Below, piece by piece: positions 1,519 to 18,789 of a stretch of DNA of 64,000 nt. Below the pieces are notes generated by a model. That model saw only the letters and a list, made by a program, of their open reading frames with translations. It did not search any database and was not told where the DNA came from. The stretch is from a virus (taxonomy: Duplodnaviria; Caudoviricetes): the IMG/VR virus record IMGVR_UViG_3300028591_000071. The stretch is one strand, 5' to 3'. Every line of letters starts with the position of its first letter. Within the stretch, counting starts at the first letter, position 1. The translations under genes were made by a program, and so were the position numbers.

Positions 1519-2510
1519 TAGCTGTAGATTCCCTTTGTTATCTCATAGTTTTCCCACTTGTACTGAGGTCTCATCGGCTGTGTCTGAGCCCATTTCCACA
1601 TTTTCTTCAGCCCTTCTTCGAGAGAAGTTTTCTGCTCATATCCAAGGAGTTCTATTGACTTATCCGGCTTCGGAACTGCGTGTTTAACCTCATGCCGGGC
1701 TTCCCTATGTTCAACCTTGTCATATCCTGTTATCTTGCACAGTAATTCTGCGGCCTCATTGATTGAATAGCCTCTTACTCCGCCAACATTGATAATTTCC
1801 TTCGATGCCTCAGGGAACACTGCAGCATTCCAAAATGCAGAGAGACAATCTTCAATATAACTAAAAGCCCTTGTCTGCTCTCCATCTCCGTAGATGAGCA
1901 TCGGCTTGTTGTTGAGAATCTGATACATCCAAATGCCAAGCACATTACGGTACTTGTCCCATATATTTTGCTTTTCACCAAAAACATTGTGCGGACGGAT
2001 GATACACCAATCAAGGCCGTGCTGTTCTCCTGCAATCTTGATGTTCATTTCACAAGCATACTTTGAAACAGCATACGGGTCAATCGGCTCAGGCCTGTCA
2101 TTCTCGTCAAACTCCTCGCCACGGCGTTCGCCCCATCCATAAACGGACATTGACGATGTATAAATAAGCCGCTTCACATCGTGGCTGATGCACTCGTTTA
2201 TCACATTATCAGTCGAAAGCATGTTGTTCCTATCGTTGAACATCCTCATAAACGGGGAAAGGCCTTCCGCCGCATACGCAGCGAAGTGATATACATATTC
2301 AAACTCGTGCTTGTCAAATATATCCTTAATTGAATCCGTGCTCAGTTCCCTTCTGTAAAAAACAACGCGTGGGTCAATGTTTTCAACATATCCTCCAAAA
2401 AGGTTATCAATTCCGACAACCTCATACTCTGGATGATTCTCCAAAATCCAATCGGCCATCCTTGAACCGAGAAGGCCAGCATTTCCTGTTATTAAAATAC
2501 TTTTTCTCAT
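1509..2510 (-). CDS. NAD-dependent nucleotide-sugar epimerase/dehydratase (extended SDR)
   Basis: ITGNAGLLG Rossmann motif, HFAA, TSSMSVYG, YAVSK (YxxxK), RPHNVFG, GDGEQTRAFSYI. Confidence 0.92.
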   Translation of the reverse strand: MRKSILITGNAGLLGSRMADWILENHPEYEVVGIDNLFGGYVENIDPRVVFYRRELSTDSIKDIFDKHEFEYVYHFAAYAAEGLSPFMRMFNDRNNMLSTDNVINECISHDVKRLIYTSSMSVYGWGERRGEEFDENDRPEPIDPYAVSKYACEMNIKIAGEQHGLDWCIIRPHNVFGEKQNIWDKYRNVLGIWMYQILNNKPMLIYGDGEQTRAFSYIEDCLSAFWNAAVFPEASKEIINVGGVRGYSINEAAELLCKITGYDKVEHREARHEVKHAVPKPDKSIELLGYEQKTSLEEGLKKMWKWAQTQPMRPQYKWENYEITKGIYSYWK

Positions 2511-3316
2511 TGTATTTGTCTGATTAATTCGTTATATCCTTCCATAAATTTATCATACTCCCCATAGTGCCTAACTACATCATCAAAGTTCCCATCACCA
2601 AAAAACTCAAACTCATCCCATTTTCCTTCAACACAATTATGCCCTCCTGTTTTACACATTACATATCCGCGATTGAATGTCCTCTTGTATATTGATGGTA
2701 GTTCTTCAGCAAATGCTCTATCGTTGAATCGTTTAAGTTCAACCTCGCCGTTTTTTATATCCTTACTTAAGGTCATCGGATTTGTCCAATAAAATGTCCC
2801 TGCAAGTATGCAATTTGTTTCGTCTGTATAAACAAGTGGCAACGAACCCCAAAACACATATGGTCTTCCATGAAATATTGTAAAAAGTTTTATTTCCGCT
2901 TCACGAACAAATTCTAAAGAATAGAAATACAACGCATAAATCCATTTTAAGAAAAATTCCCTGTTGTTTTGGAACATAACAACATCACGAACGCCCTTCG
3001 TGTGCCCAAAAAAGACCATTGTTTCCTCCATCTCGTCTATTTTGTCTATCACATTCTCTTTGAATGTTCTTGCCTCAAAAAACGGGTCGTTTTCAATCTC
3101 CTTAAAGCGTATGTCCTTACACTTAAAAACATTTATAATATTACATTTTACATCGTTAATATATTTTTTTGACATGTCAGTTGACGCTATGAAAAACTCT
3201 GCACTGTCAAACACATTGCAATATTTTGCAAGACACCCATAATGAACCTTAATGGCTATATTTGTCTCATAGTCATCAGGAATAAAAAAATGAAATACCA
3301 AATGTTTTTTTATCAT
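2507..3316 (-). CDS. Unnamed HxKG-family protein, putative glycosyltransferase-like (paralogue 1 of 4)
   Basis: FFGHTKG, WIYALYFY, GTFYWTN and RAFAEELP motifs shared with three other ORFs in the island. Confidence 0.55.
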   Translation of the reverse strand: MIKKHLVFHFFIPDDYETNIAIKVHYGCLAKYCNVFDSAEFFIASTDMSKKYINDVKCNIINVFKCKDIRFKEIENDPFFEARTFKENVIDKIDEMEETMVFFGHTKGVRDVVMFQNNREFFLKWIYALYFYSLEFVREAEIKLFTIFHGRPYVFWGSLPLVYTDETNCILAGTFYWTNPMTLSKDIKNGEVELKRFNDRAFAEELPSIYKRTFNRGYVMCKTGGHNCVEGKWDEFEFFGDGNFDDVVRHYGEYDKFMEGYNELIRQIQ

Positions 3317-3323
3317 AATATAT

Positions 3324-4100
3324 TTACACTCTACCCATTAACTCATTATATCTCTTTGTAAAAAGTTCAAAGTCGCCGAAAAATTTGACGACAATATCGA
3401 AATCAACATTGTAATATCCGCATGGATGTGTCCAAGCGTTATTGTGGCATGCAACCCTGTGAAGTGTTTCTGACTCGGTATAGATAAACGGAAGGTCTTC
3501 AACAAACGACCTGTTCGCCACCTTCGGTATCTTTACAAGGCCCGACTCAATATCATTATATAAAAGAGACGGGTTCAGCCAAAAGAATGTCCCTGGATAA
3601 TTGAATGTAGCCCTTTTGTCATAAGTCGTCCTGAGCGCCCCGTAAAATGTGGCTTGCCATGGGTGTGAATAGAAAAGCATCCTTTCTGCCTCACCAACAA
3701 ACTCAAGGTTGTAAAAATAAAGGGCGTATATCCATTTCTTTATATCCTCATACCTTTCGGGGTGGTCTTTTTTATTCGTAACACCTTTCGTGTGTCCGAA
3801 GAACACCATTCCTTCAAGTTCTCCAAGCCGGTCTATTATATGCTTCTTGAAAGTAACTGATTCGGTTAATATAGTGTTTTCCTCAATTACCATCCGTATA
3901 TCATTATTAAACCCGAGAGAAAGGATGTCGTGTTCCACTTCATTTACAAGCTCATCTGTCTTCTCCTCGAAGCATATCGAAAATATTGCAGAATCAAAGA
4001 TGTGTGCATATTCTTTCAGGAAAACGAGATGCATCCTTATCACCTCGTTCTCCTTGTACTCCTTCGGCACATAAAAATGGAACACCAATGTCTTCTTCAT
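3324..4100 (-). CDS. Unnamed HxKG-family protein (paralogue 2 of 4)
   Basis: FFGHTKG, WIYALYFYN, GTFFWLN, RSFVEDLP. Confidence 0.55.
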   Translation of the reverse strand: MKKTLVFHFYVPKEYKENEVIRMHLVFLKEYAHIFDSAIFSICFEEKTDELVNEVEHDILSLGFNNDIRMVIEENTILTESVTFKKHIIDRLGELEGMVFFGHTKGVTNKKDHPERYEDIKKWIYALYFYNLEFVGEAERMLFYSHPWQATFYGALRTTYDKRATFNYPGTFFWLNPSLLYNDIESGLVKIPKVANRSFVEDLPFIYTESETLHRVACHNNAWTHPCGYYNVDFDIVVKFFGDFELFTKRYNELMGRV

Positions 4101-5419
4101 CGTCCTATGCTATCATATTTGAAGCCGGCCCTTAACATAAGGTCCTTATAGAACGCATTCCTTCCGTCAATGAATACATCACCGCGCATTAACTCTTTAA
4201 CCTTATACATGTCAAGTTTGCATAGTTCATCCCACTCAGTAACAAGGAAAACAACATCCGCTCCTTCAACTGCTTTGTACGGGTCTGTGATATATATGAC
4301 TTCATCACCAAAAATCTTCTTTGCATTATCAATTGCAATCGGGTCATAAACGACAACCTCAACCCCCTCTTCAACGAGGTCCTTTACAAGGTTTATTGAA
4401 GGGGCTTCCCTCATGTCATCTGTTCCTGGCTTGAAAGCAAGACCAAGGACACACGCCCTCTTTGCTGATTCGTCCTTGAAAAACTCAATATATTTCTCAT
4501 AAAGTTTATCCTTCTGTATCTCGTTGACGGCATCAACGGCACCGAGGATAAGCATATTCTGACCGTTTTCCTCAGCCGTTTTCATCAATGCCTTCACATC
4601 CTTAGGGAAACAACTTCCACCATAACCGCATCCAGCCTTAAGGAATTTCGGACCAATCCTGCTGTCAAGGCCTACACATCTCATCACACTTTCTATGTTG
4701 GCCCCTACCGCTTCGCAGAGGTTTGCAATCTCATTGGTGAAACTGATTCTCGTTGCGAGCATCGCATTTGATGCATACTTCACCATTTCTGCCGAACATA
4801 TATCGGTCAGGATTATTTTATCTTCCTTCACGCCCATTACACTCTCATATAACCTACACAATTCTGTTCTCTCAAAAGAATCATTCTTTCCGCCGTCCCT
4901 CAGTCCGAGGACAACCCTATCAGGATGCAGGCAGTCATTAACAGCAACACCCTCCTTGAGAAATTCAGGATTGAAAGCAACACGAATGGCGTGATGCTCG
5001 CCGAGAACACTTTCTATGATACGCCTTACATTGTCGGTTGTACCTACGGGAACGGTTGATTTTACAACAACCACGCACTTGTGGTCATAATGGATATGCT
5101 CGACTATATTCCTCGCCGCACCGTAAACATATTCAAGGTTTGCACTTCCATCTTCCTTCTCAGGAGTTCCGACACATATGAAAATGATAGTGGATGAATC
5201 AACCGAAGAATAGTCGGTTGAGAAATGGAGCCTCTTGTTCTGTATCCCGTACTTTATCATCGGCTCAAGCAGTTCTTCATATATCGGCGATTCGCCCCTT
5301 TTTAGTTTATCAATCTTCTCCTCGTCAATGTCAATGCAGGTCACATCCGCACCTTGGTATGCCATGCATACGCCGTTTACAAGACCGACATAACCCGTTC
5401 CGATTATAGTTACATTCAT
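4097..5419 (-). CDS. ugd: UDP-glucose 6-dehydrogenase
   Basis: IGTGYVG, ICVGTP, KSTVPVGT, NPEFLKEG, GYGGSCFPKD, LAFKPGTDDMREAP, DGRN. Start moved to the ATG at 5419, downstream of the promoter. Confidence 0.95.
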   Translation of the reverse strand: MNVTIIGTGYVGLVNGVCMAYQGADVTCIDIDEEKIDKLKRGESPIYEELLEPMIKYGIQNKRLHFSTDYSSVDSSTIIFICVGTPEKEDGSANLEYVYGAARNIVEHIHYDHKCVVVVKSTVPVGTTDNVRRIIESVLGEHHAIRVAFNPEFLKEGVAVNDCLHPDRVVLGLRDGGKNDSFERTELCRLYESVMGVKEDKIILTDICSAEMVKYASNAMLATRISFTNEIANLCEAVGANIESVMRCVGLDSRIGPKFLKAGCGYGGSCFPKDVKALMKTAEENGQNMLILGAVDAVNEIQKDKLYEKYIEFFKDESAKRACVLGLAFKPGTDDMREAPSINLVKDLVEEGVEVVVYDPIAIDNAKKIFGDEVIYITDPYKAVEGADVVFLVTEWDELCKLDMYKVKELMRGDVFIDGRNAFYKDLMLRAGFKYDSIGR

Positions 5420-5437
5420 AGAAATCTGTTTTCTACA

Positions 5438-5466
5438 AATATAAGTATTTCGTGGACATTTGTCAA
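5438..5466 (-). promoter_or_regulatory. Early-type promoter TTGACA-N17-TATATT(TG)
   Basis: Exact 17-nt spacer; also fits the Bacteroidota TAnnTTTG -7 element. Confidence 0.7.
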
Positions 5467-5468
5467 AC

Positions 5469-5491
5469 AAAAATCCCCGCTATTGCGGGGA
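5469..5491 (-). terminator. Intrinsic terminator after the tail fibre gene
   Basis: TCCCCGC/GCGGGGA stem followed by a U-tract on the minus strand. Confidence 0.7.
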
Positions 5492-5501
5492 CTTAAGTTT
5501 A

Positions 5502-8500
5502 TTATATTCCAAGTTGTCCTTCAATCTTGTCGAGTCTCGATTTTAGTTTTTCAACTTCTTTCTTCAGTGCGGCGTTCTCTTCGTGCAGTTTATCCACCGC
5601 AGCGAGGGCAACGACCGAAAGTTTTTCGTAACAAACACCAAGGGTTCCATCGTCTTCGCCTGACACGAGTTCAGGATACAGTTCTCTAAGTTTCTGTGCA
5701 GATGTACCAATGTTCATCTTGCTTCCGTCAACTTCTTCATCCTTCCATTTGAAATACTTCTTAGGTAGAGTCTTAATCTTGTCAAGGTCAACTTCAACAT
5801 CGTCATAGAAGTCCTTAAGCCTTTCGTCTGATGATGCATATAGGTTCAATCCTGTCCAATAGATTCCTGAACCCGTTGCTGCACCTGCCCTGTGGGTATT
5901 TGAAGGTGACAATGTTGTAGCAGCCGTAGATGTAGCATTACAGCCAATAAGGTAATGGTTTCCTGAATTACTCGTAGTCAATGACAATGATGAACCCTCG
6001 GCTGCAGGGCCTTGGTCTCCCTTCGGTCCTTGTGGTCCTTGAACACCCGTTGCATTGGTTCCGTCGCTTCCTTTCGGTCCTTGTGGCCCTTGCTTTCCGT
6101 TAGTTCCATTTGTTCCGTTAGTACCCTTCTGCCCCTTAGGACCTTGAGGCCCCTGACTACCCTTAGGGCCTTGACGACCTTGGGCACCATCTTTGCAATC
6201 CCCTCCGGCCATGAGCTTGGCAGTATAATTGGTTCCGCTTGTTCCTATTATCTCCAATGCACCAATCATCGTCCCGTATCCCGAATAATATTGTATACAT
6301 ATAACTTTGTCTCCAATTTCATAGGTCTCGCCATTTGGGTCTATACCGAGTTCTCCCTGTGACACAAACGTTATGCTAGACACTACTCCAACCTTTGTTC
6401 CCCTTATCCCCTGTGGACCCTGAGGTCCTTGATTACCGTTTGCTCCATTTGTTCCGTTTGCGCCCGCAGGGCCCTGAGGTCCCTGAACGCCCGTGGCGTC
6501 ATTACCATTCTGCCCCTTCGGACCTTGCGGACCCTGAACACCCGTAGCATCAATTCCTTTTGGACCCTGTGGGCCTTGGTCACCTTTATTTCCTTGAGCA
6601 CCTGTCGGACCCTGTGGACCCTGAGCCCCATCGGTTCCATTAGTACCATTGGTTCCGTTTGCGCCCGCAGGACCCTGAGGCCCCTGACTACCCTTAGGAC
6701 CTTGTGGGCCTTGATAGCCACCTTCAGGAAGTGATGCCGTTACATTTACGCCACCGATAGTTGCTATGGTCTTTGGCTCCCCGAATGCAAGAGCCGCATT
6801 GCTATTCACGACAGGAATAGTTAGTTTGTTGGATGCAATGGTTGCAGCCGTTCCCGTAGTCGAAATGGTTACCGCACTTACATAACTTGAATTGACCTTC
6901 GTCAATGTGGTATTCATCGTTGCGGTATTCGATTTCAGCGTCGTTATGTCGCCCGTTGCACCCGTGAGGGTGGTGTACATCGAGGCACTGTTCTCGGCCA
7001 GCTTAGTAATCTGATTCTGCAATGAACCGCTATTTGCTTCCAACTTGGCGATTTGATTATGCATTACACCACTGTTTGCTTCGAGTTTAGTGATTTGATT
7101 CTGCAGTGAACCGCTGTTGGTTATTAATTGAGTGACCTTATTTGTTAAATCTCCTGTTGCTGACTGCAATGTCGTTATGTTGCCCGTAACCCCCGTAAGC
7201 GTCGTGTACATCGAACCGCTGTTCTCGGCCAACTTGTTGATTTGATTCTGCATTACACCGCTATTTGACGAGAGTTTCGTAACCTGATTCTGCAATGAAC
7301 CGCTATTTGTCGTCAATTGTGTAATCTGATTCTGCATCAAACCGCTGTTCGTTGTCAATTTTTCAATCTTGTTTCCGTGGTCTGAAAGGGTTGAATTGGT
7401 TGCTCCCGTATACCCGTTATAGGTCTCGGCTGTTACATATCCTGAAAGGTCAACAGTTCCGGCAAGAGGGTCCCACCTCTCTCCACTCCACGTCCAGTTC
7501 GTTCCCGCAGGTGTATTTCCACTTGCAGCTACTACATTGTAGGTATCTCCCGTTTCCGCATTGTTAGGAAGATTCGAACAAGACGCTACCGTTCCCTTAT
7601 ATTTAAATACGCTCGATAGTTTGGTATTCACTGCGCCACTCAATGACACAACGCTTGCGGAAAGCGTAAAAGCGGATGTCTTGACTGCCGAAATATCACT
7701 GTTAATCGTCGCCACCTTTCCATCAACGTAGGTCACAACATTCCCGCTGAGTGTCTTCGTGAGACTTGACGCGTATGCCTTCGCCCCATAAATGGTATTC
7801 GCATCCTTATTGTCGGTGGACTGTCCTATGACATCACTCTTGGCCTGTGTATAAGCATATCCCGAGGCGGAGCCCACAAACGACTTCGTTGCATAATTAC
7901 CCTTTATTGTAACAACCTCACCTGAAAGGGTGCTCAGATTCGAATTCGTCGTATCCAATTGAGCGTTTGTTGCATATTGTCCAAGGTTAAGGGCTTCTAT
8001 CTGCCCATAAGTGTATGCCGTGGATGCATTATATGCGCTCGTTACTGCTGCATCAATCTTTGTCTTCGTTTCCGCCGACGTCCAATATCCGCTTCTGACC
8101 GTTGCACTTATTGCGTCAGCCGTTCCCTGTGCGGTCGCTATTGATGAATTGGTTGCAGCCGTATATCCCGTATAGGTAGTCTTATCAACGAAATTCGTGT
8201 CAACATAACTCTTCGCACTCGTAATTGCCTTTGACACTGCACTTGTTATCGCATTCCCTGAAGCATTCTTCACCTCATCGTGAGTAGCATAATTTCCAAC
8301 CTTTGAATATAAGTCTGTAACCCATCCTGAAAGGGTTGTTGCAGATGACTTGAGTGTTGCCAATGTCGAATCGGTTGTTGACGAGTATGTCTTGACAAAA
8401 TCAGCAAGTCCGTCGGTATATGCCTTTGCCGATGCTACTGAAGCGTTATACGCACTTGTTACCGCAGCGTTCTTTGCTTCATCAATCTTACTCTTCGTTG

Positions 8501-8825
8501 TAGCAGAAGTCCAATAGGTTGACTTCACTGTTGCACTTATTGCAGATGCGTAGGTGAATGCACTTACTGCAGTGTCCTTAGCCGTTGCAATGGCAGAATC
8601 AGTTGTCGCAGTATATGATTCATAACCCGTCTTTGATGCGTATTTCGCCTCGTTATATGTGTCTTCGTGGAATTTTGCTATCGACCCGTCATATTTTTCT
8701 GTCGCGAGGAATGATTTTCCTGAGCCGCTAGCATAGTTTATTGCAAGTTCACCGAATTCGAGATTCGATGCCGAAGGTGTCTTATCGACTACCGCACTTT
8801 TCTTGAGATATACTTTTTGTGCCAT
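5502..8825 (-). CDS. Tail fibre protein with coiled-coil repeats, two collagen (G-X-Y) segments and a C-terminal intramolecular chaperone (peptidase S74)
   Basis: N-terminal PSASNLEFGELAIN; 14-aa NSGxxQNQITKL repeats; GPQGP repeats; C-terminal SSDERLK...GTSAQKLRELYPELV...YEKL followed by a coiled coil. Confidence 0.88.
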   Translation of the reverse strand: MAQKVYLKKSAVVDKTPSASNLEFGELAINYASGSGKSFLATEKYDGSIAKFHEDTYNEAKYASKTGYESYTATTDSAIATAKDTAVSAFTYASAISATVKSTYWTSATTKSKIDEAKNAAVTSAYNASVASAKAYTDGLADFVKTYSSTTDSTLATLKSSATTLSGWVTDLYSKVGNYATHDEVKNASGNAITSAVSKAITSAKSYVDTNFVDKTTYTGYTAATNSSIATAQGTADAISATVRSGYWTSAETKTKIDAAVTSAYNASTAYTYGQIEALNLGQYATNAQLDTTNSNLSTLSGEVVTIKGNYATKSFVGSASGYAYTQAKSDVIGQSTDNKDANTIYGAKAYASSLTKTLSGNVVTYVDGKVATINSDISAVKTSAFTLSASVVSLSGAVNTKLSSVFKYKGTVASCSNLPNNAETGDTYNVVAASGNTPAGTNWTWSGERWDPLAGTVDLSGYVTAETYNGYTGATNSTLSDHGNKIEKLTTNSGLMQNQITQLTTNSGSLQNQVTKLSSNSGVMQNQINKLAENSGSMYTTLTGVTGNITTLQSATGDLTNKVTQLITNSGSLQNQITKLEANSGVMHNQIAKLEANSGSLQNQITKLAENSASMYTTLTGATGDITTLKSNTATMNTTLTKVNSSYVSAVTISTTGTAATIASNKLTIPVVNSNAALAFGEPKTIATIGGVNVTASLPEGGYQGPQGPKGSQGPQGPAGANGTNGTNGTDGAQGPQGPTGAQGNKGDQGPQGPKGIDATGVQGPQGPKGQNGNDATGVQGPQGPAGANGTNGANGNQGPQGPQGIRGTKVGVVSSITFVSQGELGIDPNGETYEIGDKVICIQYYSGYGTMIGALEIIGTSGTNYTAKLMAGGDCKDGAQGRQGPKGSQGPQGPKGQKGTNGTNGTNGKQGPQGPKGSDGTNATGVQGPQGPKGDQGPAAEGSSLSLTTSNSGNHYLIGCNATSTAATTLSPSNTHRAGAATGSGIYWTGLNLYASSDERLKDFYDDVEVDLDKIKTLPKKYFKWKDEEVDGSKMNIGTSAQKLRELYPELVSGEDDGTLGVCYEKLSVVALAAVDKLHEENAALKKEVEKLKSRLDKIEGQLGI
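6005..6715 (-). repeat. Collagen-like G-X-Y coding repeats in two blocks separated by a ~65-aa non-collagen insert
   Basis: GPQGPKG and GTNGTNG repeats in the translation; repeated ggtcct/ggaccc in the DNA. Confidence 0.9.
6960..7370 (-). repeat. 42-bp (14-aa) imperfect tandem coding repeats
   Basis: TNSGLMQNQITQLT, NSGSLQNQVTKLSS, NSGVMQNQINKLAE and similar; a larger duplicated block ending SMYTTLTG occurs twice. Confidence 0.85.
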
Positions 8826-8965: not shown

Positions 8966-9445
8966 TTACCCCCGCTTCCAAAACTTGTATGTTATGTCTT
9001 CGAACTCCAATTCCAAATCATCCCCATTAACCTTGTGGTGGACCTTGTACATCCTCTGATTCGTTGTTTCCTTGTTGAGAGGACCGAATTCTTCAATATA
9101 TGGGCCCTCCTTAAGATAGGTGAATACCGCCCCGAGTTCCGCTTCAACATCGGGCCTTCCCGAATAAAGTGCTGCCGCCAAACCCCTCTGTGCGACTATC
9201 AGGGCGAGGTCCAAAAGCCCTTCAATATCATTACCCTCACCCATAAAGCAAACACAGGTGATACCTTCATTCTTATCAATAAGGTCATTGAGTACTTCGG
9301 GAGTGAGTTCTTCGCCGACATCTTCCCTAAGCCAAGGGCTGTGACACCCTTCACAATGATTCTGACAATTACTAATGTTGATTGCAAGTGTTATTTCGTC
9401 AGGGATTTCCTCAAATGTAACAGCTGTTTCTAAATATTTTACCAT
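8966..9445 (-). CDS. nrdG: Anaerobic ribonucleotide reductase activating protein (radical SAM)
   Basis: CQNHCEGCHS (CxxxCxxC), CVCFMGEG, GPYIEEFGPLN..TTNQRMY. Confidence 0.92.
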   Translation of the reverse strand: MVKYLETAVTFEEIPDEITLAINISNCQNHCEGCHSPWLREDVGEELTPEVLNDLIDKNEGITCVCFMGEGNDIEGLLDLALIVAQRGLAAALYSGRPDVEAELGAVFTYLKEGPYIEEFGPLNKETTNQRMYKVHHKVNGDDLELEFEDITYKFWKRG

Positions 9446-9477: not shown

Positions 9478-10329
9478 TTAAAACGGCAATAAGCCATGGT
9501 ATGGGATGTCGCAGTTCTGAAGCCTCGACCTCATGCCGTCCGCAAGAAAGTAATCTCTCACGGGAAAAGACAGACTCATCTGCGCCAAATAAATCTCATC
9601 AAACTTTTCAATGTTTTTCACATAAACCTCCTTATTCCTTTGGGCATAAGATTCCCACTTCTCTTTCAATGCCGTTGGGTCGATGAACTTAAGATGGAAT
9701 CCATACATCCTGCAACAATCGTCATAGTTCTTTATTTCCACTCCCTGTATCGGTCTTGCAAACCCATAGTGATTCCCCGGGGTCGGAGTGAATTCATCAA
9801 AGTCGTTAACCAATATCATAGTCGGCTTCATCCCGCCTACCCAATAATTTGCGAGGACCCCATCTACTGCGTGGACCAACTTATTCTTCTCGTCACATAT
9901 CCACCCGAGCCGTTTGTCCATTGAAGGCGGAAAAAGGTTGACCATGTTCTTATAGAAACAATTATATCCCCGCCATATGCGGTCTTCTGTCAGGGCTGCC
10001 TTTATGTCAACATCCCCGTTGTAAAAAAGAACCTCATCGAAATCGGTGAATGTCATCCATATCAATTCGTTACCGTTTCCCTGTCGTCTTTTGCATTCAT
10101 AAAATGCAGACCTCTGCAATTCACACTTCGCCCTGTCATCAAAAACACCACCCGTGTCCCATCTTCGTATCTCAACAAACGGATATTTGCTAAGCATCTC
10201 GACGGTATTGTCGGTACTCCCGTTATCATAAACGATAAATTTGTCATACCCAAAATTCTCAACATAAGGCATGACATAAGGAATGTATTTTCCCTCGTTA
10301 AACGTACAAGTATATCCTATTATTTCCAT
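9478..10329 (-). CDS. GT-A fold glycosyltransferase (family 2-like)
   Basis: TCTFNE, VYDNGSTD, WMTFTDFDE (DxD), PGNH, FHLKF. Confidence 0.8.
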   Translation of the reverse strand: MEIIGYTCTFNEGKYIPYVMPYVENFGYDKFIVYDNGSTDNTVEMLSKYPFVEIRRWDTGGVFDDRAKCELQRSAFYECKRRQGNGNELIWMTFTDFDEVLFYNGDVDIKAALTEDRIWRGYNCFYKNMVNLFPPSMDKRLGWICDEKNKLVHAVDGVLANYWVGGMKPTMILVNDFDEFTPTPGNHYGFARPIQGVEIKNYDDCCRMYGFHLKFIDPTALKEKWESYAQRNKEVYVKNIEKFDEIYLAQMSLSFPVRDYFLADGMRSRLQNCDIPYHGLLPF

Positions 10330-11192
10330 TGATTGTAAAATTTGTCCTTAAAAACCAATTTTCCCCAACAGGAATCTAAACGGCCACCATATATGTCATT
10401 TATATCGATGCTCTTCCATTTCTCAGCAAGATATATCTGCATCGGATAGGACGAAGAATATATACGCCGTATGAAGTTTTCATCCAACAAGGAATACCCG
10501 TCTATCACTATGGGCCTTTTTTTATATTCTGCGTTCTTCTCAAGCCCATAATCGTGAAAATAATACTTAAAATGAAAAACAGACATCGGACACGGCAACG
10601 CATTTTTCACATTGTCGTGTTCACACAAGGCGTAATGGTTGCCCGGAACAAAATAGAGATTGGCAAAACTGTTGACGTGAAACAAAATCGGCTTCGAATA
10701 CTGATGATTGACGACGACACCGTCATACTCATGCGGGAAATTCCCGTCTGCGATGAACTTTCTCACCGTTTCTTCATCATATCCCTTTGGCAGCATCGGC
10801 TGAATCATCACGTCATAAAAACAATTGATTTCCCGTTGAGTCAAACTATTAAGATACTCCTTGAATTTTATATCATAAAAATAATATAAAACCTCATCGA
10901 AGTCGGTAAACGTCATCCAAACATCATCTCCCGTCGAATTCGCTATTTCCCTGCTTTCTACATATGCATCTATCTCAAGCCCCCTTTTCTTAACGTCGTC
11001 AAACACCCCGTTGGTATCCCATTCCCTAATTTCAACGAACGGATACTTACTGAGCATTTCCACCGTCCTGTCCGTTGACTGATTATCCCATACCACAAAC
11101 TTGTCATATCCAAGGAACTGTACATAGGGCATCACAACGTCAATTATCTTTTCAACATTAAATGTTGTCGTATAACCAATTAATTTAATCAT
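10320..11192 (-). CDS. GT-A fold glycosyltransferase (family 2-like), tandem paralogue of 9478..10329
   Basis: VWDNQSTDRTVEMLSKYPFVEIREWDT, WMTFTDFDE, PGNH, FHFKY. Confidence 0.8.
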   Translation of the reverse strand: MIKLIGYTTTFNVEKIIDVVMPYVQFLGYDKFVVWDNQSTDRTVEMLSKYPFVEIREWDTNGVFDDVKKRGLEIDAYVESREIANSTGDDVWMTFTDFDEVLYYFYDIKFKEYLNSLTQREINCFYDVMIQPMLPKGYDEETVRKFIADGNFPHEYDGVVVNHQYSKPILFHVNSFANLYFVPGNHYALCEHDNVKNALPCPMSVFHFKYYFHDYGLEKNAEYKKRPIVIDGYSLLDENFIRRIYSSSYPMQIYLAEKWKSIDINDIYGGRLDSCWGKLVFKDKFYNQWK

Positions 11193-12022
11193 ATTTTCTT
11201 CCTTATCTCATTCAAAAATTCCTTGAACCTATCCGCATCTCCAAGAATTGCCAACACCTCATCCCACTTCTTATCGTCAGCATAGTAAAGATTGAGATTG
11301 GTTGCATCAAGAATCGCGTCATTATGGCTTGTCATACCGCACCCATAAGCATAACGCTCGAACCACATTCCCGGATACTCCTCGGCAAAATACCTACTGT
11401 CAGCTTCCACGTCCTTTACCGTACCAACCATCCTGCAGTTCTTGTATTTCGGCATGTTTATCCAATAGAAAGTGCCGCTATACTCAAGGCCACTGATATT
11501 ATTTGGCATTGCGTGGCACACATTTGTCCTATATTTCGGAAATTGGGTGAGGAATGTGCCGTAGAAGACCTCCGACGCCCTCAGGTTACCGTTAAAATAA
11601 CCTTCCACCTCATTGAGAAATTCAAAATTATAGAAATACATGCCACAGACCCACCTGAAAATGGCCTCTCCGTTAACTTGTGGGTTTTTCATGTTCATCG
11701 TTCCCTTGTTATGGGCGAAAAACACATATCCGTCAAGATTTTCATAACCTTTCAATATCTCCGTCTTGAATGTCTCAACCTCATAGAGTTCAGTGTTCTT
11801 CACTATCCTGATGTTCTTTACCCCATTATGATTTAGGGATAGAATCCACTGCAATCCGTCGGCAATCGTATCCCTGTCGGACAAATCGTCAACGGATATC
11901 GTAAACCTGATTTCATCAAACACCTTTATATACTTGCTAAGGCACATAAAATGAACCTTATTTGCCATATTTTCGGAAAAATCCTTTCCGCAATATAGAT
12001 GGTATACCAATATCTTTTTCAT
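11189..12022 (-). CDS. Unnamed HxKG-family protein (paralogue 3 of 4)
   Basis: FFAHNKG, WVCGMYFYN, GTFYWIN, RYFAEEYP; start at ATG 12022 (MKKILVYH), matching the paralogues. Confidence 0.55.
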   Translation of the reverse strand: MKKILVYHLYCGKDFSENMANKVHFMCLSKYIKVFDEIRFTISVDDLSDRDTIADGLQWILSLNHNGVKNIRIVKNTELYEVETFKTEILKGYENLDGYVFFAHNKGTMNMKNPQVNGEAIFRWVCGMYFYNFEFLNEVEGYFNGNLRASEVFYGTFLTQFPKYRTNVCHAMPNNISGLEYSGTFYWINMPKYKNCRMVGTVKDVEADSRYFAEEYPGMWFERYAYGCGMTSHNDAILDATNLNLYYADDKKWDEVLAILGDADRFKEFLNEIRKKI

Positions 12023-12029
12023 CGTAAAG

Positions 12030-12074
12030 AATATACAAAAATAGATTGAAAATAGCAACCCTATTGGATATATT
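12030..12074. promoter_or_regulatory. Overlapping divergent early-type promoters
   Basis: Minus strand: TTGCTA-N17-TATATT (12058-12030). Plus strand: TTGAAA-N17-TATATT (12046-12074). Confidence 0.65.
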
Positions 12075-12240
12075 AAAATAAAAAATCAGTCAGCAACCCA
12101 CGACTAAAGTTTGTGGGCTTGACAAGGAATGAACCTCGTCGTATGGGAGGCTGACAACTCCCTGCCGTCCAGGAACTTAAGCGTGCCGTCCAACGGCAAC
12201 GCATTCGGGGACGGGTGATTCGCCCTTGTGGCGATGTTGA
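12069..12240 (-). ncRNA. Predicted TnpB omegaRNA/reRNA (scaffold overlapping the tnpB 3' end and right end, plus ~20-nt flanking guide)
   Basis: Inferred from established TnpB biology and the right-end hairpin; the 5' boundary is a guess. Confidence 0.5.
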
Positions 12241-13444
12241 CTGCCGCGTTCCAGTCAGCGTCAAAGACGAGCCCGTCGGCACATACGTAACGGCACCCCT
12301 TGCGGAGCCCGTCCCGGTTGCCGGTCCGGCAGTCCATCTGACTGGTGTACGTTGGCGAAACCGTTTCCACGCGTTTTCCGCGCATCTGTGCCTTGTATGC
12401 CAACATGTCCCGGAATGCTCGCACCGGGACCTGCGAGAACATGTTGTTGTGGCGCTTCCGCTTGAAGCCCTCGTCGGTCTTCGCCGTCTTGGCCTTTATC
12501 TTGGACAGGTCTTCCACGACAAGCACGGAGGCGTCCGTGGAACGAAGCAGGGCGTTCGTCGCCCTGTGGAGCATGTCCATGGATAGGTTCCGTTCGCGCT
12601 TGGAGACTTTGGCGAGATGGCGCCGCGCCGACCTCGAGTTCTTTGATTTCTCCTGGAGTTTCCGCTTTAGGTGACGCACCTTTCTCCGCTCACGGAGGTA
12701 CGTCTTATCCCTGAACGCCTTGCCCTCGCTCGTGACGAAGAGCCTCTTGATGCCGAGGTCAACCCCAACGGCGTTATCGCCGGAAGTGGCGATTGTCGGC
12801 GCCTGGAACGGGATGGATAGGAACATCCTCCCGTCGCGGATGAATATCGTTGGGTCGCACGGCTCGCTGGTGGCGAGAAGTTCCACAACCTTCGGGTAAA
12901 GGACGAACGGGATTTTTACTCGTTTCCTCGCGACCTCGCTGGTGATGACAATCCCGTCGGTGTCAATGCGGGTGTAAAGCCGCTTGTCAAGCCGGAGCGA
13001 AAGCCCGCGCTTCTGCGGGACGTCGGCATTGCGGTGCTTGTTTGACCGGATAGACTTGAACGCCGGGATGACATCCTTGTAGAGGCGGATGACGCCCTGC
13101 GACGGGAGTTCCGGGTACTTTGCCCGGAGCCAGTCATAGACTTTCGAATGGACGGCCTTCATGGACAAGGGAACTTTGTTCTCCGCCAGGAACGTGGCGC
13201 AGTCGTTGTACGCTTGCGCATACAGCCCGAGCAGCCGCTCCCAGTAGGAGAAGGTTGCTTCGGTTGGCTTGAGTTCCACGTTGTAGGTTATCACATTCAT
13301 ATACTTAACATATGTTCTATATATAAATAATATATATTTTGAAAAAAGTTAAGAAATTTGTATATTTTTATTGAAAAATAATTGTTTAACAAAAGGAATT
13401 AACCGCAATTCCTCCCACGGCTGAAACCCGTGGGTTTCCTTGCG
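12089..13444 (-). mobile_element. Non-autonomous IS200/IS605-family element (tnpB only, IS1341-like)
   Basis: Subterminal hairpins CCCACGACTAAAGTTTGTGGG (12097-12117) and CCCACGGCTGAAACCCGTGGG (13414-13434); right end ...GCTGAC; coding region clearly more GC-rich than the flanks; no tnpA. The left boundary is uncertain by a few nt. Confidence 0.85.
12104..13300 (-). CDS. tnpB: RNA-guided endonuclease TnpB
   Basis: RuvC motifs VGVDLG, VVEDL and DADWNAAVNI all keep their acidic residues; YTSQ motif; degenerate zinc finger. Confidence 0.92.
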   Translation of the reverse strand: MNVITYNVELKPTEATFSYWERLLGLYAQAYNDCATFLAENKVPLSMKAVHSKVYDWLRAKYPELPSQGVIRLYKDVIPAFKSIRSNKHRNADVPQKRGLSLRLDKRLYTRIDTDGIVITSEVARKRVKIPFVLYPKVVELLATSEPCDPTIFIRDGRMFLSIPFQAPTIATSGDNAVGVDLGIKRLFVTSEGKAFRDKTYLRERRKVRHLKRKLQEKSKNSRSARRHLAKVSKRERNLSMDMLHRATNALLRSTDASVLVVEDLSKIKAKTAKTDEGFKRKRHNNMFSQVPVRAFRDMLAYKAQMRGKRVETVSPTYTSQMDCRTGNRDGLRKGCRYVCADGLVFDADWNAAVNIATRANHPSPNALPLDGTLKFLDGRELSASHTTRFIPCQAHKL

Positions 13445-13453
13445 GTGATTATC

Positions 13454-14254
13454 ATGAACAACATAGACATATTCATCTTCTCGCAAGGAATTCCCAAGGT
13501 GTACCCGAAATCCGATGAATACAAACTTGTTTCAGTCGGGGAAATCGAGGAGCCTTGTGAAATTCAAAAGATAGATGTAGGAAAATATGACGACCCGCTC
13601 CTTAAAATGGAACACGCATACAGCGAAGGAGCCCGCATCCACGCCTTATGGAAAAACTACCCGTTGAAAAAGTATGTTGGAACCGCACATTACCGGCGTT
13701 ACTTCGACTTCTTTGATAAGGTTCCCGATATGGACACAATATTCTCGACACACGATGCAATATATCAGTCATTCGACATAGGATGGCCATCAATACGGGA
13801 TAACTATGCGGGATGCCATAACATAGACGACCTTAATCTATGTGTTGAAATCATTAAAGAAAAATGGTCGGATTACGCGGGTGCAGCAGACTATGTGATG
13901 GGAAGCAAATATTTCGTTCCGTGCAACATTTTCGTCCTCACAAGGGAGATGTTCTGCAAATGGTGCGAATTCGTATTCGGCGTTTTGGATGAATATAATG
14001 AAAGGATGGGGTTCAAAACCGACCTTGACGTGTGTAATCACGTAGTAAACAATATGGATAGATATGTGGAGGGGAAAGGTGGACCGCCAAACAACAACAC
14101 GTCGTATCAAAGCCGTATACACGCCTTCCTTATGGAGCGAATATCGTCTATCTTCTTCAAACAGAACATAAAGAATCCGTATTACAGCAACATTCTGCTT
14201 ACGGAAACGCATTTTGACTTCGAAAAAACCTATTTTTACCAATATGAGAAATAA
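13454..14254 (+). CDS. DUF4422-like glycosyltransferase-associated protein
   Basis: YVGTAHYRRYF, CNIFVL...FCKWCEFVFGVL and RIHAFLMERI are typical of DUF4422 proteins in polysaccharide loci. Confidence 0.75.
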   Translation: MNNIDIFIFSQGIPKVYPKSDEYKLVSVGEIEEPCEIQKIDVGKYDDPLLKMEHAYSEGARIHALWKNYPLKKYVGTAHYRRYFDFFDKVPDMDTIFSTHDAIYQSFDIGWPSIRDNYAGCHNIDDLNLCVEIIKEKWSDYAGAADYVMGSKYFVPCNIFVLTREMFCKWCEFVFGVLDEYNERMGFKTDLDVCNHVVNNMDRYVEGKGGPPNNNTSYQSRIHAFLMERISSIFFKQNIKNPYYSNILLTETHFDFEKTYFYQYEK

Positions 14255-15479
14255 AATTACGGCAATAATAGTAGATAAAGATTATAACTATCACGATTAC
14301 AGCGGAGTAAAATACGACGACGGCAATAAGTGGTCAGAAAACACATTTGACCTTACGATTTGCGACACCGGCGTTGGAATTGCAAAGAAATTGTATGAAA
14401 AACGAGGCTTTGACTCCATAATCACAATTGGCGATACATCATTGTGGGGAGACCTACAATATATGCCATTCTTCGTCAGGAAGAAATGGGTTCACCTTGA
14501 CGAATTCAATGCAAACAACATCGTTTCGTCGATTATCGCCACTTTTAAACGGAATACGGTTAAGCGGGATGATGAACCGACACTTTTCTCGTTCTTTACC
14601 TGTACGTACAACACGGGATATGATAAATTCAAACGTCTTTATGACTCAATGTGCCGTCAAACATACCCCGAATGGGATTGGTTCATAATCGATGACAGTC
14701 CTAATGACGAAACGATAAAAATGATTGAATCGTTCAAGGACTTAAGGATAACTATCATAAAAAACGTGTCAATCCACGGAAGCATCGGGTTCAACAAACA
14801 CGTTGCGGCAATGGCTTGCGACGGAGATTATCTATTGGAAGTTGACCACGATGATGAACTGACTCCCGACTGCCTTTCAACGATACTTGCGGCAAGGGAA
14901 AAGTTTCCTAACAGCGATTTCTTCTATTCAAACTGTCTTGAACTGAAACATCCTGACGAAGTGGCGATTATGTATGGCGAAGGATGGGGTTGGGGCGAAG
15001 GCCTCACAAAAACGGAGGTCGTAAACGGCAGAGAATTCACATTTTCGGAGTCTCCGGGAATAAATCCGTTCTCAATCAGGACAATTTATGCACAACCGAA
15101 CCATATAAGGGCTTGGAAAAGGGATTTTTATCACAAAATACAGGGGCATAACCCTAATTACTCTGTCCTCGATGACCAAGAATTATTAATAAGGACGTTC
15201 CTTAACGGGGAAATGACGAAAATCGACAAGGTTCTATATATACAACACGAGGGCGACGGCGAACGCGGGGTAAGCAAAGACAATACCCAATCCGTCAGGT
15301 TCGGCGAAATACAAAGAACAACAATCCTGCTTAAGGAATTGTATGACCTTCCTATACATAACAGAATCCTTGAACTCGGGTTCAATGATATTGCTTGGGA
15401 TTACAGTCGCGGATATTCGACATTATGGAAGCCGCACACTCCCGGACAGGAAATGATGAATAACTTTTATACACCTTAA
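14244..15479 (+). CDS. Glycosyltransferase family 2 with N-terminal extension
   Basis: FTCTYNT, SMCRQTYPEWDWFIIDDS, EVDHDDEL, DDQELLIRT. Confidence 0.85.
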   Translation: MRNKITAIIVDKDYNYHDYSGVKYDDGNKWSENTFDLTICDTGVGIAKKLYEKRGFDSIITIGDTSLWGDLQYMPFFVRKKWVHLDEFNANNIVSSIIATFKRNTVKRDDEPTLFSFFTCTYNTGYDKFKRLYDSMCRQTYPEWDWFIIDDSPNDETIKMIESFKDLRITIIKNVSIHGSIGFNKHVAAMACDGDYLLEVDHDDELTPDCLSTILAAREKFPNSDFFYSNCLELKHPDEVAIMYGEGWGWGEGLTKTEVVNGREFTFSESPGINPFSIRTIYAQPNHIRAWKRDFYHKIQGHNPNYSVLDDQELLIRTFLNGEMTKIDKVLYIQHEGDGERGVSKDNTQSVRFGEIQRTTILLKELYDLPIHNRILELGFNDIAWDYSRGYSTLWKPHTPGQEMMNNFYTP

Positions 15480-15482
15480 TAA

Positions 15483-17900
15483 ATGAGACCACAAGACATA
15501 AAGATACTCGGAGTAACCGTAACATATAACAATGAGGATAAAATTCCTTACGTAATGCCGTATTATGAGCGAATCGGCATCGATAAACTCGTTGTTTATG
15601 ACAATGGAAGTTCCGACAGGACGGTGGAAATGCTCAGCAAATACCCGTTTGTTGAAATCCGTTCCTATACTACGGAAAGATATGACGAGGGGCTTATCCT
15701 TAAATTCAAAACCGAAATACAAAATGAATTCAAGGGTCAATATCATTGGTGCATATCGACTTATTTCGACGAAGTATTCTACTCCGACCGTGATTTCAGG
15801 GAAGTGCTGTATGAAAAAATGTGTGAGGGTAAGACATACTTCCTTAAAACGGGGTTGAATATCTTCAGCCGAACGTTCCCGCCATCCGACAATGGAAAAC
15901 TCATACATGAAAATGTCGGCAGGGGGTCTTTATGGACTTCTGATGACGGAATAATCGGAGTCTTCGGAAACAAAGTAGAATTGTTCAATATGAACAAAGT
16001 CTACGTAAGATATCATATGGGCGGCTGTCACGAGTGTCAAATATTCGGAGAAGATTCACCTTTCGAGGACGACATCGCCTTTTTCCATCTCAAATTCATC
16101 GACTTTGATTTCATCGTCAAATCCAACGAACTGTACAGGCAGAGAACGGAAGGAACCGATATCCTTTGTTACGATTATTTTGCAAAAAACATGGAAAAAG
16201 TGTATCAGCTGATGGAAAAGAGAGCGATTTCCATAGAAGAATACATGAACACTCCGATGCATTACCTTATGCCACAGCAGGTCGTGTTCCTAATCAATGA
16301 AGCCGACAAGGAGATGCAGAAAAAATATATAGATGCAATCAAAGAGGCGTCGGATAGCGGGCCGGTACAACAATACGGAATATTATTCTATGGCGTCTCG
16401 GATGAAAATTATGACGAGATATGGTATTACGGGAGGCATCTTGGGTTACTGATTATGAACCATAGCCATACCAATAACGGCAGGGATGCTGTCAAGGGCT
16501 TCGGTGGTATGTTTGGAACGACATTAAAGCCGGAACCTTGGATTGCCGAGATTGGTGATGTGCGTATTCTTACCCCGTCATTCTTCAGGCATTTTGAAAA
16601 ACTCCTTATCGAATCTCATAAAAAAGGCATCAGGGACGTATCCACCAACGGTATCAGGTTTATTAAGTATAATAAATTCATTGAAGGCAATCAACCGTCA
16701 ACGCTTGGATGCTATATGATTGTACGTGATGAGGAGCAAACCATTAAAAATTGTCTTGACAGCATCATCAATATCTGTGATGAGATTGTGATTGTCGACA
16801 CCGGATGCGTTGACAAGACGATGGATATAGCAAGGGCTTATGGCGATAAGATAAAGACGTATGAGTTCAAGTGGATTAACGACTTCGCCGCTGCGAGAAA
16901 CTTTGCAATGTCAAAAGTCAGCACCGATTATTCATTTACCACCGATGCCGATGAGATATTCTCGCCAAGACTCAGGGAAACTATTATAAAACTTAAGGAA
17001 CGGAATTTCAATGGGCTTGATTCCGTAGATATCTATCTCCTGAACCATAACGGAACTGACGTGCCGAACTATTATGTCGGCGGAAGGCAAATAGTGAAGA
17101 ATTATCCAAGCAACATTTGGAAATATAAGATTCATGAGAAACTTTATTTCCGCAGAAACACTTTTACGACAATCGATTTGTTCAGCGGATACATACTGCA
17201 TAAGCATAACACAACGAAGTCGTCCACTTCTAACTACAACAAATATGCGGAATGGTATTATAAAGACCTGAATATGGGTGACAGTTATGTCCTTTCCAAA
17301 GAAAACGGGGCACATTACTTCTACTACCTGTTCTATACGCTCAGATGGATGGATGAACTTCGGTCAAGGCAATATCTCAAGGAATTGTACAACAAAGACC
17401 GCATCATATCATATACCGAAGACCAAAGAGCAAACATGTATCCGTCATTTATTAGTTTTGAAGAACTTTTTGTGTTCGAACTGCTGAATAACTCTACGGA
17501 CGCATCTTATATGGCCGCCATGTCTGAACATATAAACGAAAAATTTCCTAAATACCTCCTGTTACACAGAGCATACGAGATAGACAAGAATGTGCTGTCA
17601 CAAACAAATTGGATAAACCTGTCGTTCATCTCATACAACTATGGCCTTATCGATGAATTCATAACCACTACGGAAGAATCACATAAGAGATTTCCAAACA
17701 ATTCAACGATAAAATATAACATGAATTTCATAAATAGCACCGTCAGGCCGATATACAACTCAAATCTTTTGATTTTAACCACCGATGGGTTATATGTGGA
17801 ATCTACCAAAAACTATTATTCGCATATGTTCAAAAAGGCGGAAAATAATTTCTATGGAAATTATGATTATCAGATAGACCTCGGCGATACGGGCAATTAA
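15483..17900 (+). CDS. Multidomain glycosyltransferase: N-terminal GT-A domain, second SunS-like GT2 domain and helical C-terminus
   Basis: N-terminus paralogous to 9478/10320 (VYDNGSSDRTVEMLSKYPFVEIR); second domain MIVRDEE...IVIVDTG...WINDFAAARNFA...DADE...KIHE. Confidence 0.8.
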   Translation: MRPQDIKILGVTVTYNNEDKIPYVMPYYERIGIDKLVVYDNGSSDRTVEMLSKYPFVEIRSYTTERYDEGLILKFKTEIQNEFKGQYHWCISTYFDEVFYSDRDFREVLYEKMCEGKTYFLKTGLNIFSRTFPPSDNGKLIHENVGRGSLWTSDDGIIGVFGNKVELFNMNKVYVRYHMGGCHECQIFGEDSPFEDDIAFFHLKFIDFDFIVKSNELYRQRTEGTDILCYDYFAKNMEKVYQLMEKRAISIEEYMNTPMHYLMPQQVVFLINEADKEMQKKYIDAIKEASDSGPVQQYGILFYGVSDENYDEIWYYGRHLGLLIMNHSHTNNGRDAVKGFGGMFGTTLKPEPWIAEIGDVRILTPSFFRHFEKLLIESHKKGIRDVSTNGIRFIKYNKFIEGNQPSTLGCYMIVRDEEQTIKNCLDSIINICDEIVIVDTGCVDKTMDIARAYGDKIKTYEFKWINDFAAARNFAMSKVSTDYSFTTDADEIFSPRLRETIIKLKERNFNGLDSVDIYLLNHNGTDVPNYYVGGRQIVKNYPSNIWKYKIHEKLYFRRNTFTTIDLFSGYILHKHNTTKSSTSNYNKYAEWYYKDLNMGDSYVLSKENGAHYFYYLFYTLRWMDELRSRQYLKELYNKDRIISYTEDQRANMYPSFISFEELFVFELLNNSTDASYMAAMSEHINEKFPKYLLLHRAYEIDKNVLSQTNWINLSFISYNYGLIDEFITTTEESHKRFPNNSTIKYNMNFINSTVRPIYNSNLLILTTDGLYVESTKNYYSHMFKKAENNFYGNYDYQIDLGDTGN

Positions 17901-17959
17901 CGAGAGAGCAAGCATTCCACGAATATACTGAACTAATGTTTGGAAGGGAATCTAAAATC

Positions 17960-17999
17960 AAAAAAATCGGAGGCTAAAAAGTCTCCGATTTTGTTTTTT
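17960..17999. terminator. Bidirectional terminator between convergent genes
   Basis: AATCGGAG/CTCCGATT stem flanked by A- and T-tracts. Confidence 0.65.
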
Positions 18000-18789
18000 C
18001 ATATTCATTGTCAAACTCTTCCATGCTCATTTCCGAGCGGCTGCACCATTCTTCAAGTAGTTGGTCAAACTGAGAATACGGGTCCCATCCCGTTGTGGCG
18101 GCAACATAACAGGTAGTGGCCACAAGTTCGTAACTTATCGTGTTTCCCGGAAAATTCTCAGAGAAAAACCGCCCAATCATCCTTGGCTTCTCAATATTCC
18201 TCGTCTTCATCACATCCTTCAGCGTCGATACATTGACCCAAAAGATTGAACCGAGATAATAGTACCTGTTAAACGGAAGAACCTCGTTCGGCCTCCCGTC
18301 AGTATACCTGCAGTCAGTCATAGGAAAGCCATAGAAAACCTTCGTGTTCTGAACCAACCAATAATCAATCTCCCATTCTCTTGAAAGAGCGTAATAATAA
18401 TTGGAAAATACCCATCTTGCCGTGTTTTCCGTATTGTTACTCTCCCCGCGAAGATGCGAGAAGAATACCAACTTATCGTTGTTGGATTCATTGTCGAGAA
18501 TTTCCTCCTTGAAGTTCTTCGATTCCCTCAGCGATGTGTTTTTCTCAACCACGAACTCAACATTTTCCGTGTAACCAAGCGACATGATGAAATCTACATA
18601 TTCCGATATCAGTTTTGTATTCCCTATAAGGTCTTCCTTGACGGAAAGGATGAATTTTGCCTCATCAAACACGCTCCTCCACCTTTTAATGCAAGCAAAA
18701 TGTACCTTAGCGACAAGAACCTCGCTGCATCGCTGCTGCGGGGTCCTGTCGTCACCAATATAGATGAAAAATATTAATTTTTTACGCAT
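17974..18789 (-). CDS. Unnamed HxKG-family protein (paralogue 4 of 4), translationally coupled to nrdD
   Basis: FFSHLRG, WVFSNYYY, GSIFWVN, RFFSENFPG; the ATG at 18789 overlaps the nrdD stop. Confidence 0.55.
   Translation of the reverse strand: MRKKLIFFIYIGDDRTPQQRCSEVLVAKVHFACIKRWRSVFDEAKFILSVKEDLIGNTKLISEYVDFIMSLGYTENVEFVVEKNTSLRESKNFKEEILDNESNNDKLVFFSHLRGESNNTENTARWVFSNYYYALSREWEIDYWLVQNTKVFYGFPMTDCRYTDGRPNEVLPFNRYYYLGSIFWVNVSTLKDVMKTRNIEKPRMIGRFFSENFPGNTISYELVATTCYVAATTGWDPYSQFDQLLEEWCSRSEMSMEEFDNEYEKTKSETF

Follow-up and report, generated by a model that had tools for sequence, protein, structure and literature searches.

Among phages, it is chiefly mycobacteriophages for which virion glycosylation by the phage's own enzymes has been documented, and among viruses generally chiefly chloroviruses and mimiviruses. 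RgpF (Pfam PF05045) works on lipid-linked polysaccharide and elongates lipid-linked rhamnan (PMC9574508), and domain 2 of the A064R protein of chlorovirus PBCV-1 is a cation-independent inverting alpha-L-rhamnosyltransferase acting on the capsid glycan (PMC9614988). In this study we describe four paralogous proteins encoded in a glycan island of a giant rumen phage, within a 64,000-nucleotide stretch of the IMG/VR virus record IMGVR_UViG_3300028591_000071, the whole of which is hereafter called the window. They are probably distant relatives of the RgpF domain, and A064R domain 2 (A064R-D2) is a possible analogue. With a probability of about 0.65, we consider the four to be soluble single-domain GT-A glycosyltransferases that would create distinct linkages in a cytoplasmic glycan, with a virion protein as the acceptor.

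Four related proteins and their conserved motifs

The genes of the four paralogues are listed below with the expectation values (E) of their family-profile domain.

2507..3316, minus strand: paralogue 1 (P0001), 269 amino acids (aa), a predicted single-domain RgpF-like GT-A protein; domain E 9.6e-70
3324..4100, minus strand: paralogue 2 (P0002), 258 aa, 40% identical to P0001; domain E 4.6e-78
11189..12022, minus strand: paralogue 3 (P0003), 277 aa; domain E 1.3e-83
17974..18789, minus strand: paralogue 4 (P0004), 271 aa, the most divergent copy; domain E 3.2e-66

The initial annotation, made from the sequence alone, had singled out these open reading frames (ORFs) as related, and BLASTP, alignment and a six-frame profile search all bear this out. 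Each ORF has an open, stop-free translation at these minus-strand coordinates, and at 12022 and 18789 the ATG starts give a better match than the longer TTG ORFs to M-[KR]-K-x-L-[VI]-[FY], the N-terminus typical of the family. When the six frames of the 64-kb window were searched with the family profile by hmmsearch, exactly four copies were detected, with domain E-values from 1e-66 to 1e-83. Full-length alignment to P0001 revealed identities of 24-40%. The BLASTP E-value was 2e-29 for one pair and 3e-21 even for the most distant pair (P0004 versus P0001), which places the paralogy far beyond chance.

The alignment also confirmed that the motifs listed in the initial annotation are common to the four proteins: FF.H.[KR]G, G[TS]..W.N, R.F.E..P, [KR].H..[CF][LI] and E..[TN]FK were found in all of them, with H-L-R-G in place of H-T-K-G in P0004. 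The aromatic motif that had been read as W...Y[FY]Y is present as well, but its spacing is W-x4-Y-[FY]-Y and not W-x3. In an alignment of 113 members, 106 sequences conserve the first motif (FF.H.[KR]G) and 95 conserve G[TS]x[FYW]Wx[NDH]. Seven residues (H25, E81, H105, K107, N179, R200 and E204, in P0001 numbering) are invariant or nearly so in this diverse set, and an acidic pair, D46/D47 (about 60% Asp), is located at the end of strand 2. As annotated, there is no conserved DxD motif; just unconserved DFD, DRD and DAD triplets occur, in two of the four copies. Hydrophobic segments were likewise absent from the four proteins (KD19 ≤ 1.2).

Predicted fold and candidate active site

The AlphaFold2 model of P0001 (predicted local distance difference test, pLDDT, 94.7; predicted template modelling score, pTM, 0.92) has its elements arranged as b1-a1-b2-a2-b3-a3-b4, with H105 as the last residue of strand 4 (residues 99-105). 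Foldseek comparison with the PDB gave weak, consistent matches to IspD, TarI, LH3, GlcAT-P and GlfT2, with probabilities of 0.95-1.0 for the last three. Upon exhaustive structural alignment, 24 PDB chains reached Z ≥ 8, and all of them belong to the nucleotide-diphospho-sugar transferase superfold, being either GT-A transferases or sugar nucleotidyltransferases. The best match was PmHS2 (Z 10.9 over 177 residues, root mean square deviation 3.6); further values were 9.4 for both KfiA and hyaluronan synthase, 9.2 for both the CHSY3-CHPF chondroitin sulfate polymerase complex and mannosylglycerate synthase, 8.9 for LH3/ColGalT1 and 8.6 for Mimivirus R699. The AlphaFold and Foldseek comparison with GT-A structures that had been suggested along with the annotation thereby yielded a predicted GT-A, nucleotide-diphospho-sugar transferase fold for the four proteins, and not a fold unrelated to sugar-transfer enzymes. 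Searches of PDB sequences with the family profiles and the RgpF profile returned chance matches only.

Since strand 4 ends at H105 in this GT-A-like model, H-x-[KR]-G is predicted to occupy the place of the GT-A DxD, a placement given by secondary-structure position and not by residue-level superposition. Across the 113 sequences this position is without an acidic pair, and H-x-[KR]-G is found there in the 106 members that keep the first motif.

The same superfold would also accommodate a non-glycosyltransferase, such as a sugar-1-phosphate nucleotidyltransferase for unusual sugars or a sugar- or polyol-phosphate transferase. Chains of GlmU, of the GDP-mannose pyrophosphorylase type and of IspD/TarI reached Z 8-9.8 and stood at the top of the Foldseek list, and the lack of DxD together with a conserved Lys is a nucleotidyltransferase feature too. 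However, the Gly-rich loop G-x-G-[TS]-R after strand 1 is not present, and no Gly or Arg is conserved there: strand 1 (L-V-F-H-F-Y) runs into I-P-D-D-Y-x-x-N, which gives Y-I-P-D-D-Y at this place. Moreover, the occurrence of four to six paralogues per island and the fusions with GT4, GT92-like and methyltransferase domains described below fit stepwise transferases and not donor activation, and the sole specific sequence relationship of the family is with RgpF. We therefore find this explanation improbable.

Far less probable still is a non-catalytic role, in which the proteins would bind sugars or nucleotides and serve the fibre or the glycosylation machinery, for instance as scaffold or chaperone. 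It is true that they lack the canonical catalytic DxD, and catalysis is something that we infer. Against this idea, the seven polar residues named above are (nearly) invariant in 113 diverse members and cluster in the model at GT-A donor- and acceptor-binding positions; it is this conservation that argues for catalysis.

Relationship to RgpF

The Pfam RgpF model spans 503 positions, and some bacterial proteins of 260-300 aa match just one half of it. We aligned 40 single-domain proteins that match the C-terminal half of the model (set A3) and compared them with the family profile (A4, the 113-member alignment). In the RgpF set, H92, D93, K94, G178 and E205 are invariant, and W182 and R201 are nearly so; H92-D93-K94 comes after a hydrophobic strand and is followed by G178-T-M-F-W182 and then by R201...E205. 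The family residues matching these motifs are H105, K107, G173, W177, R200 and E204. Alignment of A4 with A3 by hhalign gave an E-value of 9.7e-5 and a score of 37.7 over 208 columns, at a probability of 58% against a usual bar of 90%, and paired FFxHxKG with LLHDKxS, GTFYW with GTMFW and RxYAE with IRxTLE in the same order. In comparison with the score of 37.7, 60 column shuffles scored 14.6 ± 2.9 (maximum 22.4), the reversed profile 12.4, and sets of GT2_4/GT92, GT2, DUF4422 and double-GT2 proteins from the islands 12-20. Single RgpF sequences showed short, motif-level matches only to the family profile.

The model of a single-domain RgpF protein (pLDDT 93.5) is clearly GT-A, with Z up to 13.7, and its helices and strands follow the same order as in the P0001 model; strand 4 comprises residues 87-92, with H92-D93-K94 at its end. 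In the atlas, the structural template modelling (TM) score between the P0001 model and RgpF proteins was 0.60, and once DUF8361 clusters were left out, RgpF PF05045 was carried by 29 of the 30 named atlas clusters closest to P0003. In BFVD, 11 of the 12 best viral neighbours of the P0001 model were also within the top 50 of the RgpF model. The initial annotation had considered the HxK motif reminiscent of RgpF, and the profile-profile alignment with its controls, the models, the atlas and BFVD support this as a distant, specific link. In our view the family does not belong to PF05045 and is probably a separate, remote sister group of the RgpF domain. Kinship with the other GT-A families of the island (GT2_4/GT92, GT2, DUF4422 and double GT2) was rejected by hhalign.

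Three BFVD entries, M1IF74 (638 aa), M1HWA2 (445 aa) and A0A516L7Y9 (435 aa), are unnamed structural neighbours with E-values of about 2e-6. Two of these entries reappear among the neighbours of the RgpF model, and two of the three have chlorovirus-style accessions. The 638-aa neighbour (E 1.9e-6) has such an accession and the length of A064R.

Distribution and age of the family

A database search with a hidden Markov model of the family, as recommended in the initial annotation, showed that the four members then recognised are the complement of the window, but not of the family. Exhaustive HMMER searching of 1.84 billion representatives returned 693 representative clusters (at 50% identity) at E ≤ 1e-3 and 217 at E ≤ 1e-30, nearly all of them unnamed and viral. 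A word-indexed search found 38 relatives, none of them named, on contigs of up to 399 kb, and no names were attached to the ten representative clusters that were looked up. Scans of the four proteins against Pfam (E ≤ 1), NCBIfam and PHROGs gave no match. To this extent the proteins are unnamed, but in the nearest atlas clusters, which are about 90% viral (Uroviricota), 10-30% of the members carry PF27674 (DUF8361) of Pfam 38.1. Part of the family is thus probably listed in Pfam 38.1 as DUF8361 and should be called uncharacterised rather than unknown. Nothing was found in the literature on DUF8361.

The family is almost exclusively phage. Among 401 Bacteroidota genomes it was present in one, the Paludibacteraceae metagenome-assembled genome (MAG) RGIG10190, with six copies on one 29.7-kb contig. 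This contig, JAGCWQ010000115.1 (L001/L009/L010), encodes an epimerase 87% identical to that of the window, collagen/S74 fibre genes and a 2680-aa ORF. Because of the epimerase and the fibre genes we consider it phage-derived; although binned as bacterial, it most likely represents a prophage or a piece of a phage genome, which hints at the host lineage. Apart from this phage-like MAG contig, the family was found on phage contigs only.

Clades were assigned from a quick tree, in which the four window copies fell into four supported clades, each with orthologues on other contigs. The P0001 clade holds orthologues up to 81% identical, the separate P0002 clade contains P0005 and P0008, the P0003 clade contains the copy of L004 and P0150, and the P0004 clade comprises 13 rows with 100% support. 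As each copy has an orthologue clade of its own, the paralogy is old. Expansion by duplication, as suggested earlier, therefore holds in so far as the four are true paralogues, but it was not a local expansion in this phage, and recent local duplication was rejected. The four supported clades with their orthologues are consistent with different specificities.

Domain fusions

Fused members of the family carry an N-terminal GT92/GT2_4, GT4/GT1 or Methyltransf_24 domain, and a search for longer homologues returned three fused forms only and no named protein. In addition, two further domains of about 250 aa, without a Pfam match, are fused to the C-terminus of the family domain in two separate groups:

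C-terminal extra domain, first group: P0058, P0059, P0319 and P0320
C-terminal extra domain, second group: P0073 and P0098

These C-terminal domains may be additional unrecognised transferase modules.

The glycan island and the candidate acceptor

The window belongs to a jumbo phage with a contractile tail. Its genes include those for a tail sheath, a baseplate hub, a UvsX-like recombinase, NrdD, a DnaB-like helicase and a 5'-3' exonuclease, and the contig that carries these proteins measures 306 kb. In a Megablast search, the adjacent replication genes had no match among 50,697 phage records. The placement of all four copies within a glycan island, already recognised in the initial annotation, is confirmed by the Pfam and NCBIfam assignments of the flanking sugar-enzyme genes.

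607-1518, minus strand: ORF of 303 aa at the left edge of the island, unmatched in Pfam, NCBIfam and PHROGs
1509..2510, minus strand: NAD-dependent sugar epimerase/dehydratase of the short-chain dehydrogenase/reductase type (SDR); PF01370 E 2e-42, no NCBIfam equivalog reached
4097..5470, minus strand: UDP-glucose 6-dehydrogenase (Ugd) for nucleotide-sugar donor supply; three UDPG_MGDP_dh domains, TIGR03026 442 bits, above cut-off
5502..8825, minus strand: Ser/Thr-rich collagen-repeat fibre of 1107 aa with a C-terminal S74 chaperone (Pfam Collagen and Peptidase_S74); candidate acceptor
8966-9445, minus strand: NrdG-like activase; TIGR02826 E 1e-38, below cut-off
9478-10329 and 10320-11192, minus strand: two GT2_4/GT92-like glycosyltransferases (Pfam), unrelated to the four by hhalign
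12104-13300, minus strand: TnpB-like gene (OrfB_IS605 and Cas12f TNB domain) between paralogue 3 and the DUF4422-GT2 operon
13430..17900, plus strand: operon of a DUF4422 protein, a GT2 and an 805-aa double GT2 (Pfam), unrelated to the four by hhalign
18782-20959, minus strand: NrdD, partner of the NrdG-like activase
28647-30008, minus strand: HNH/homing endonuclease-like gene of 453 aa (phrog_559 E 9e-97) among replication/recombination genes

The genomic context was assessed in five loci. Related IMG/VR phage contigs keep the gene set of the island in synteny, so that homologues, too, are associated with glycan loci, as are the fused forms by their domains. The SDR copies are 81-87% identical in the islands of L003 and L009, the DUF4422/GT2/double-GT2 block recurs in L004, where it adjoins an orthologue of paralogue 3, and the six copies on the MAG contig lie in one glycosyltransferase/methyltransferase/epimerase island. 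The GT-A fold, the glycan islands and the fusions support the earlier interpretation of a putative glycosyltransferase or glycan-modifying family.

The virion fibre is the leading acceptor candidate, on circumstantial grounds, because three loci have collagen/S74 fibre genes next to the island: they are located in or beside it and flank it in L003 and L010. Alternatively, the glycosyltransferases could modify a host envelope glycan or a lipid-linked precursor, in seroconversion or in superinfection exclusion, or could have hypermodified bases of the phage DNA as their acceptor. RgpF itself acts on lipid-linked polysaccharide (PMC9574508), and the island of the window lies beside nrdD, nrdG and the genes for a DnaB-like helicase and an exonuclease. 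Yet no flippase, polymerase, ABC exporter, GT-C, polyprenyl-phosphate transferase or membrane protein was detected in the island, where a single borderline hydrophobic segment is the most that any protein has. With regard to DNA bases, known DNA sugar modifications need far fewer enzymes than a dozen transferase domains plus methyltransferases. The fibre gene in or beside the island at three loci also speaks against a non-virion acceptor. A non-virion acceptor thus appears unlikely to us.

Membrane association was rejected, as there are no hydrophobic segments in the four proteins and no membrane-embedded protein in the island.

Some further features of the region were observed. In L004, a 344-kb phage contig, the orthologues of the two genes that neighbour the TnpB-like gene are adjacent and divergent, about 40 bp apart, and so the TnpB-like element looks inserted in the phage of the window. 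The NrdG-like activase and NrdD genes are separated by about 9.3 kb, occupied by glycosyltransferase genes and the TnpB element, which raises the possibility that nrdG and nrdD were pushed apart by an insertion of this part of the glycan island. In two related loci giant ORFs adjoin the family genes (L002:71-7912, plus strand, 2613 aa; L010:319-8361, minus strand, 2680 aa); their sole match was a weak CotH-kinase hit, in one of them.

Proposed function

Several results weigh against our proposal of soluble GT-A glycosyltransferases that act on a virion protein. The hhalign probability to RgpF is just 58%, HMMER cross-searches between the family and RgpF were not significant (≤ 17 bits), the Pfam RgpF model had no match to the four proteins at E ≤ 1, and no rhamnose-donor (rml) genes were seen in the window. 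Sugar nucleotidyltransferases scored nearly level with GT-A transferases in the structural alignment. There is no solved structure or PDB sequence relative for either the family or the single-domain RgpF group, and no biochemical data on the family were found in cluster names or in the literature on DUF8361. As to the fibre, other large neighbours take its place in two loci, and nrdD, nrdG and replication genes border the island too.

According to the glycosyltransferase proposal, which we still prefer, the N-terminal Rossmann half would bind the nucleotide sugar, and the His and Lys/Arg pair would contact its diphosphate, thereby replacing a DxD-bound metal or lessening the dependence on it. 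The invariant Glu204, together with Arg200, may act at the acceptor site. Each paralogue lineage would add one sugar through one linkage, and the paralogues, along with the GT2, GT92-like and DUF4422 enzymes, could build a complex glycan in the cytoplasm from donors supplied by Ugd and the SDR. As the acceptor we regard a virion protein as most likely, one candidate being the collagen-like Ser/Thr-rich fibre of the island.

We also put forward a wider proposal, tentatively and in the knowledge that it may well prove wrong. The family and RgpF may together represent a His-x-Lys GT-A class that works without a DxD-bound metal, in which the family would be new at the CAZy level and phage-restricted. 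Each lineage could then be a single-linkage module, interchangeable with the others, and by mixing, fusing and duplicating such modules jumbo phages would diversify the glycan coat on collagen-like virion fibres.

The novelty is less than the initial annotation had claimed, as the family is probably a catalogued DUF, has a known fold and is a relative of RgpF. At the same time, approximately 700 sequence clusters, almost phage-only and with four to six copies per island, can now be given a predicted fold and a candidate active site, with RgpF as a named relative. The annotation should help to locate glycan islands in huge phages of the gut and rumen, and offers small soluble enzymes for glyco-engineering. 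To our knowledge, neither the family nor RgpF has been the subject of a structure or a mechanistic study; work on the His-x-Lys motif would therefore also inform on the streptococcal and lactococcal rhamnan polymerases.

Comparison with known systems

The nearest atlas clusters, with 10-30% DUF8361 carriers, contain proteins of the same length and have feature scores of 0.97-0.98; those of them that are also in the structure list reach TM 0.85-0.87. The link of the family to DUF8361 rests on this proportion of carriers and adds no functional information.

With the classical GT-A enzymes (GT2 SpsA-like, GT45 KfiA/PmHS2, hyaluronan and chondroitin synthases, and LH3/ColGalT1) the family shares its predicted fold, at Z 8-10.9 over 165-198 residues, and its D46/D47 pair sits in the model where GT-A enzymes bind the nucleotide. 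In contrast to them, it lacks the DxD at strand 4, the sequence identity is 5-10%, and its profile does not resemble those of the GT2, GT2_4/GT92 and DUF4422 enzymes of the island.

The comparison with RgpF concerns especially its single-domain forms of about 240-310 aa from bacteria, phages and giant viruses. Common to both are the GT-A fold, His-x-Lys instead of DxD at strand 4, G-T-x-[FY]-W and R-x-x-x-E. However, the RgpF invariants N-x-G-K-D-I-G-G-K and D...H..ER were not seen in the family, which has invariants of its own (H25, E81, W125, Y130 and N179) and a C-terminal helical tail. The distribution is different as well: PF05045 was found in 5 of the 121 Bacteroidota genomes sampled, whereas the family, apart from the phage-like MAG contig, was found on phage contigs only.

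Finally, PBCV-1 A064R-D2, which comprises residues 213-438, resembles the family in being a small, virus-encoded transferase module without an annotated family. It is metal-independent and part of a multi-module virion-glycan pathway (PMC9614988).

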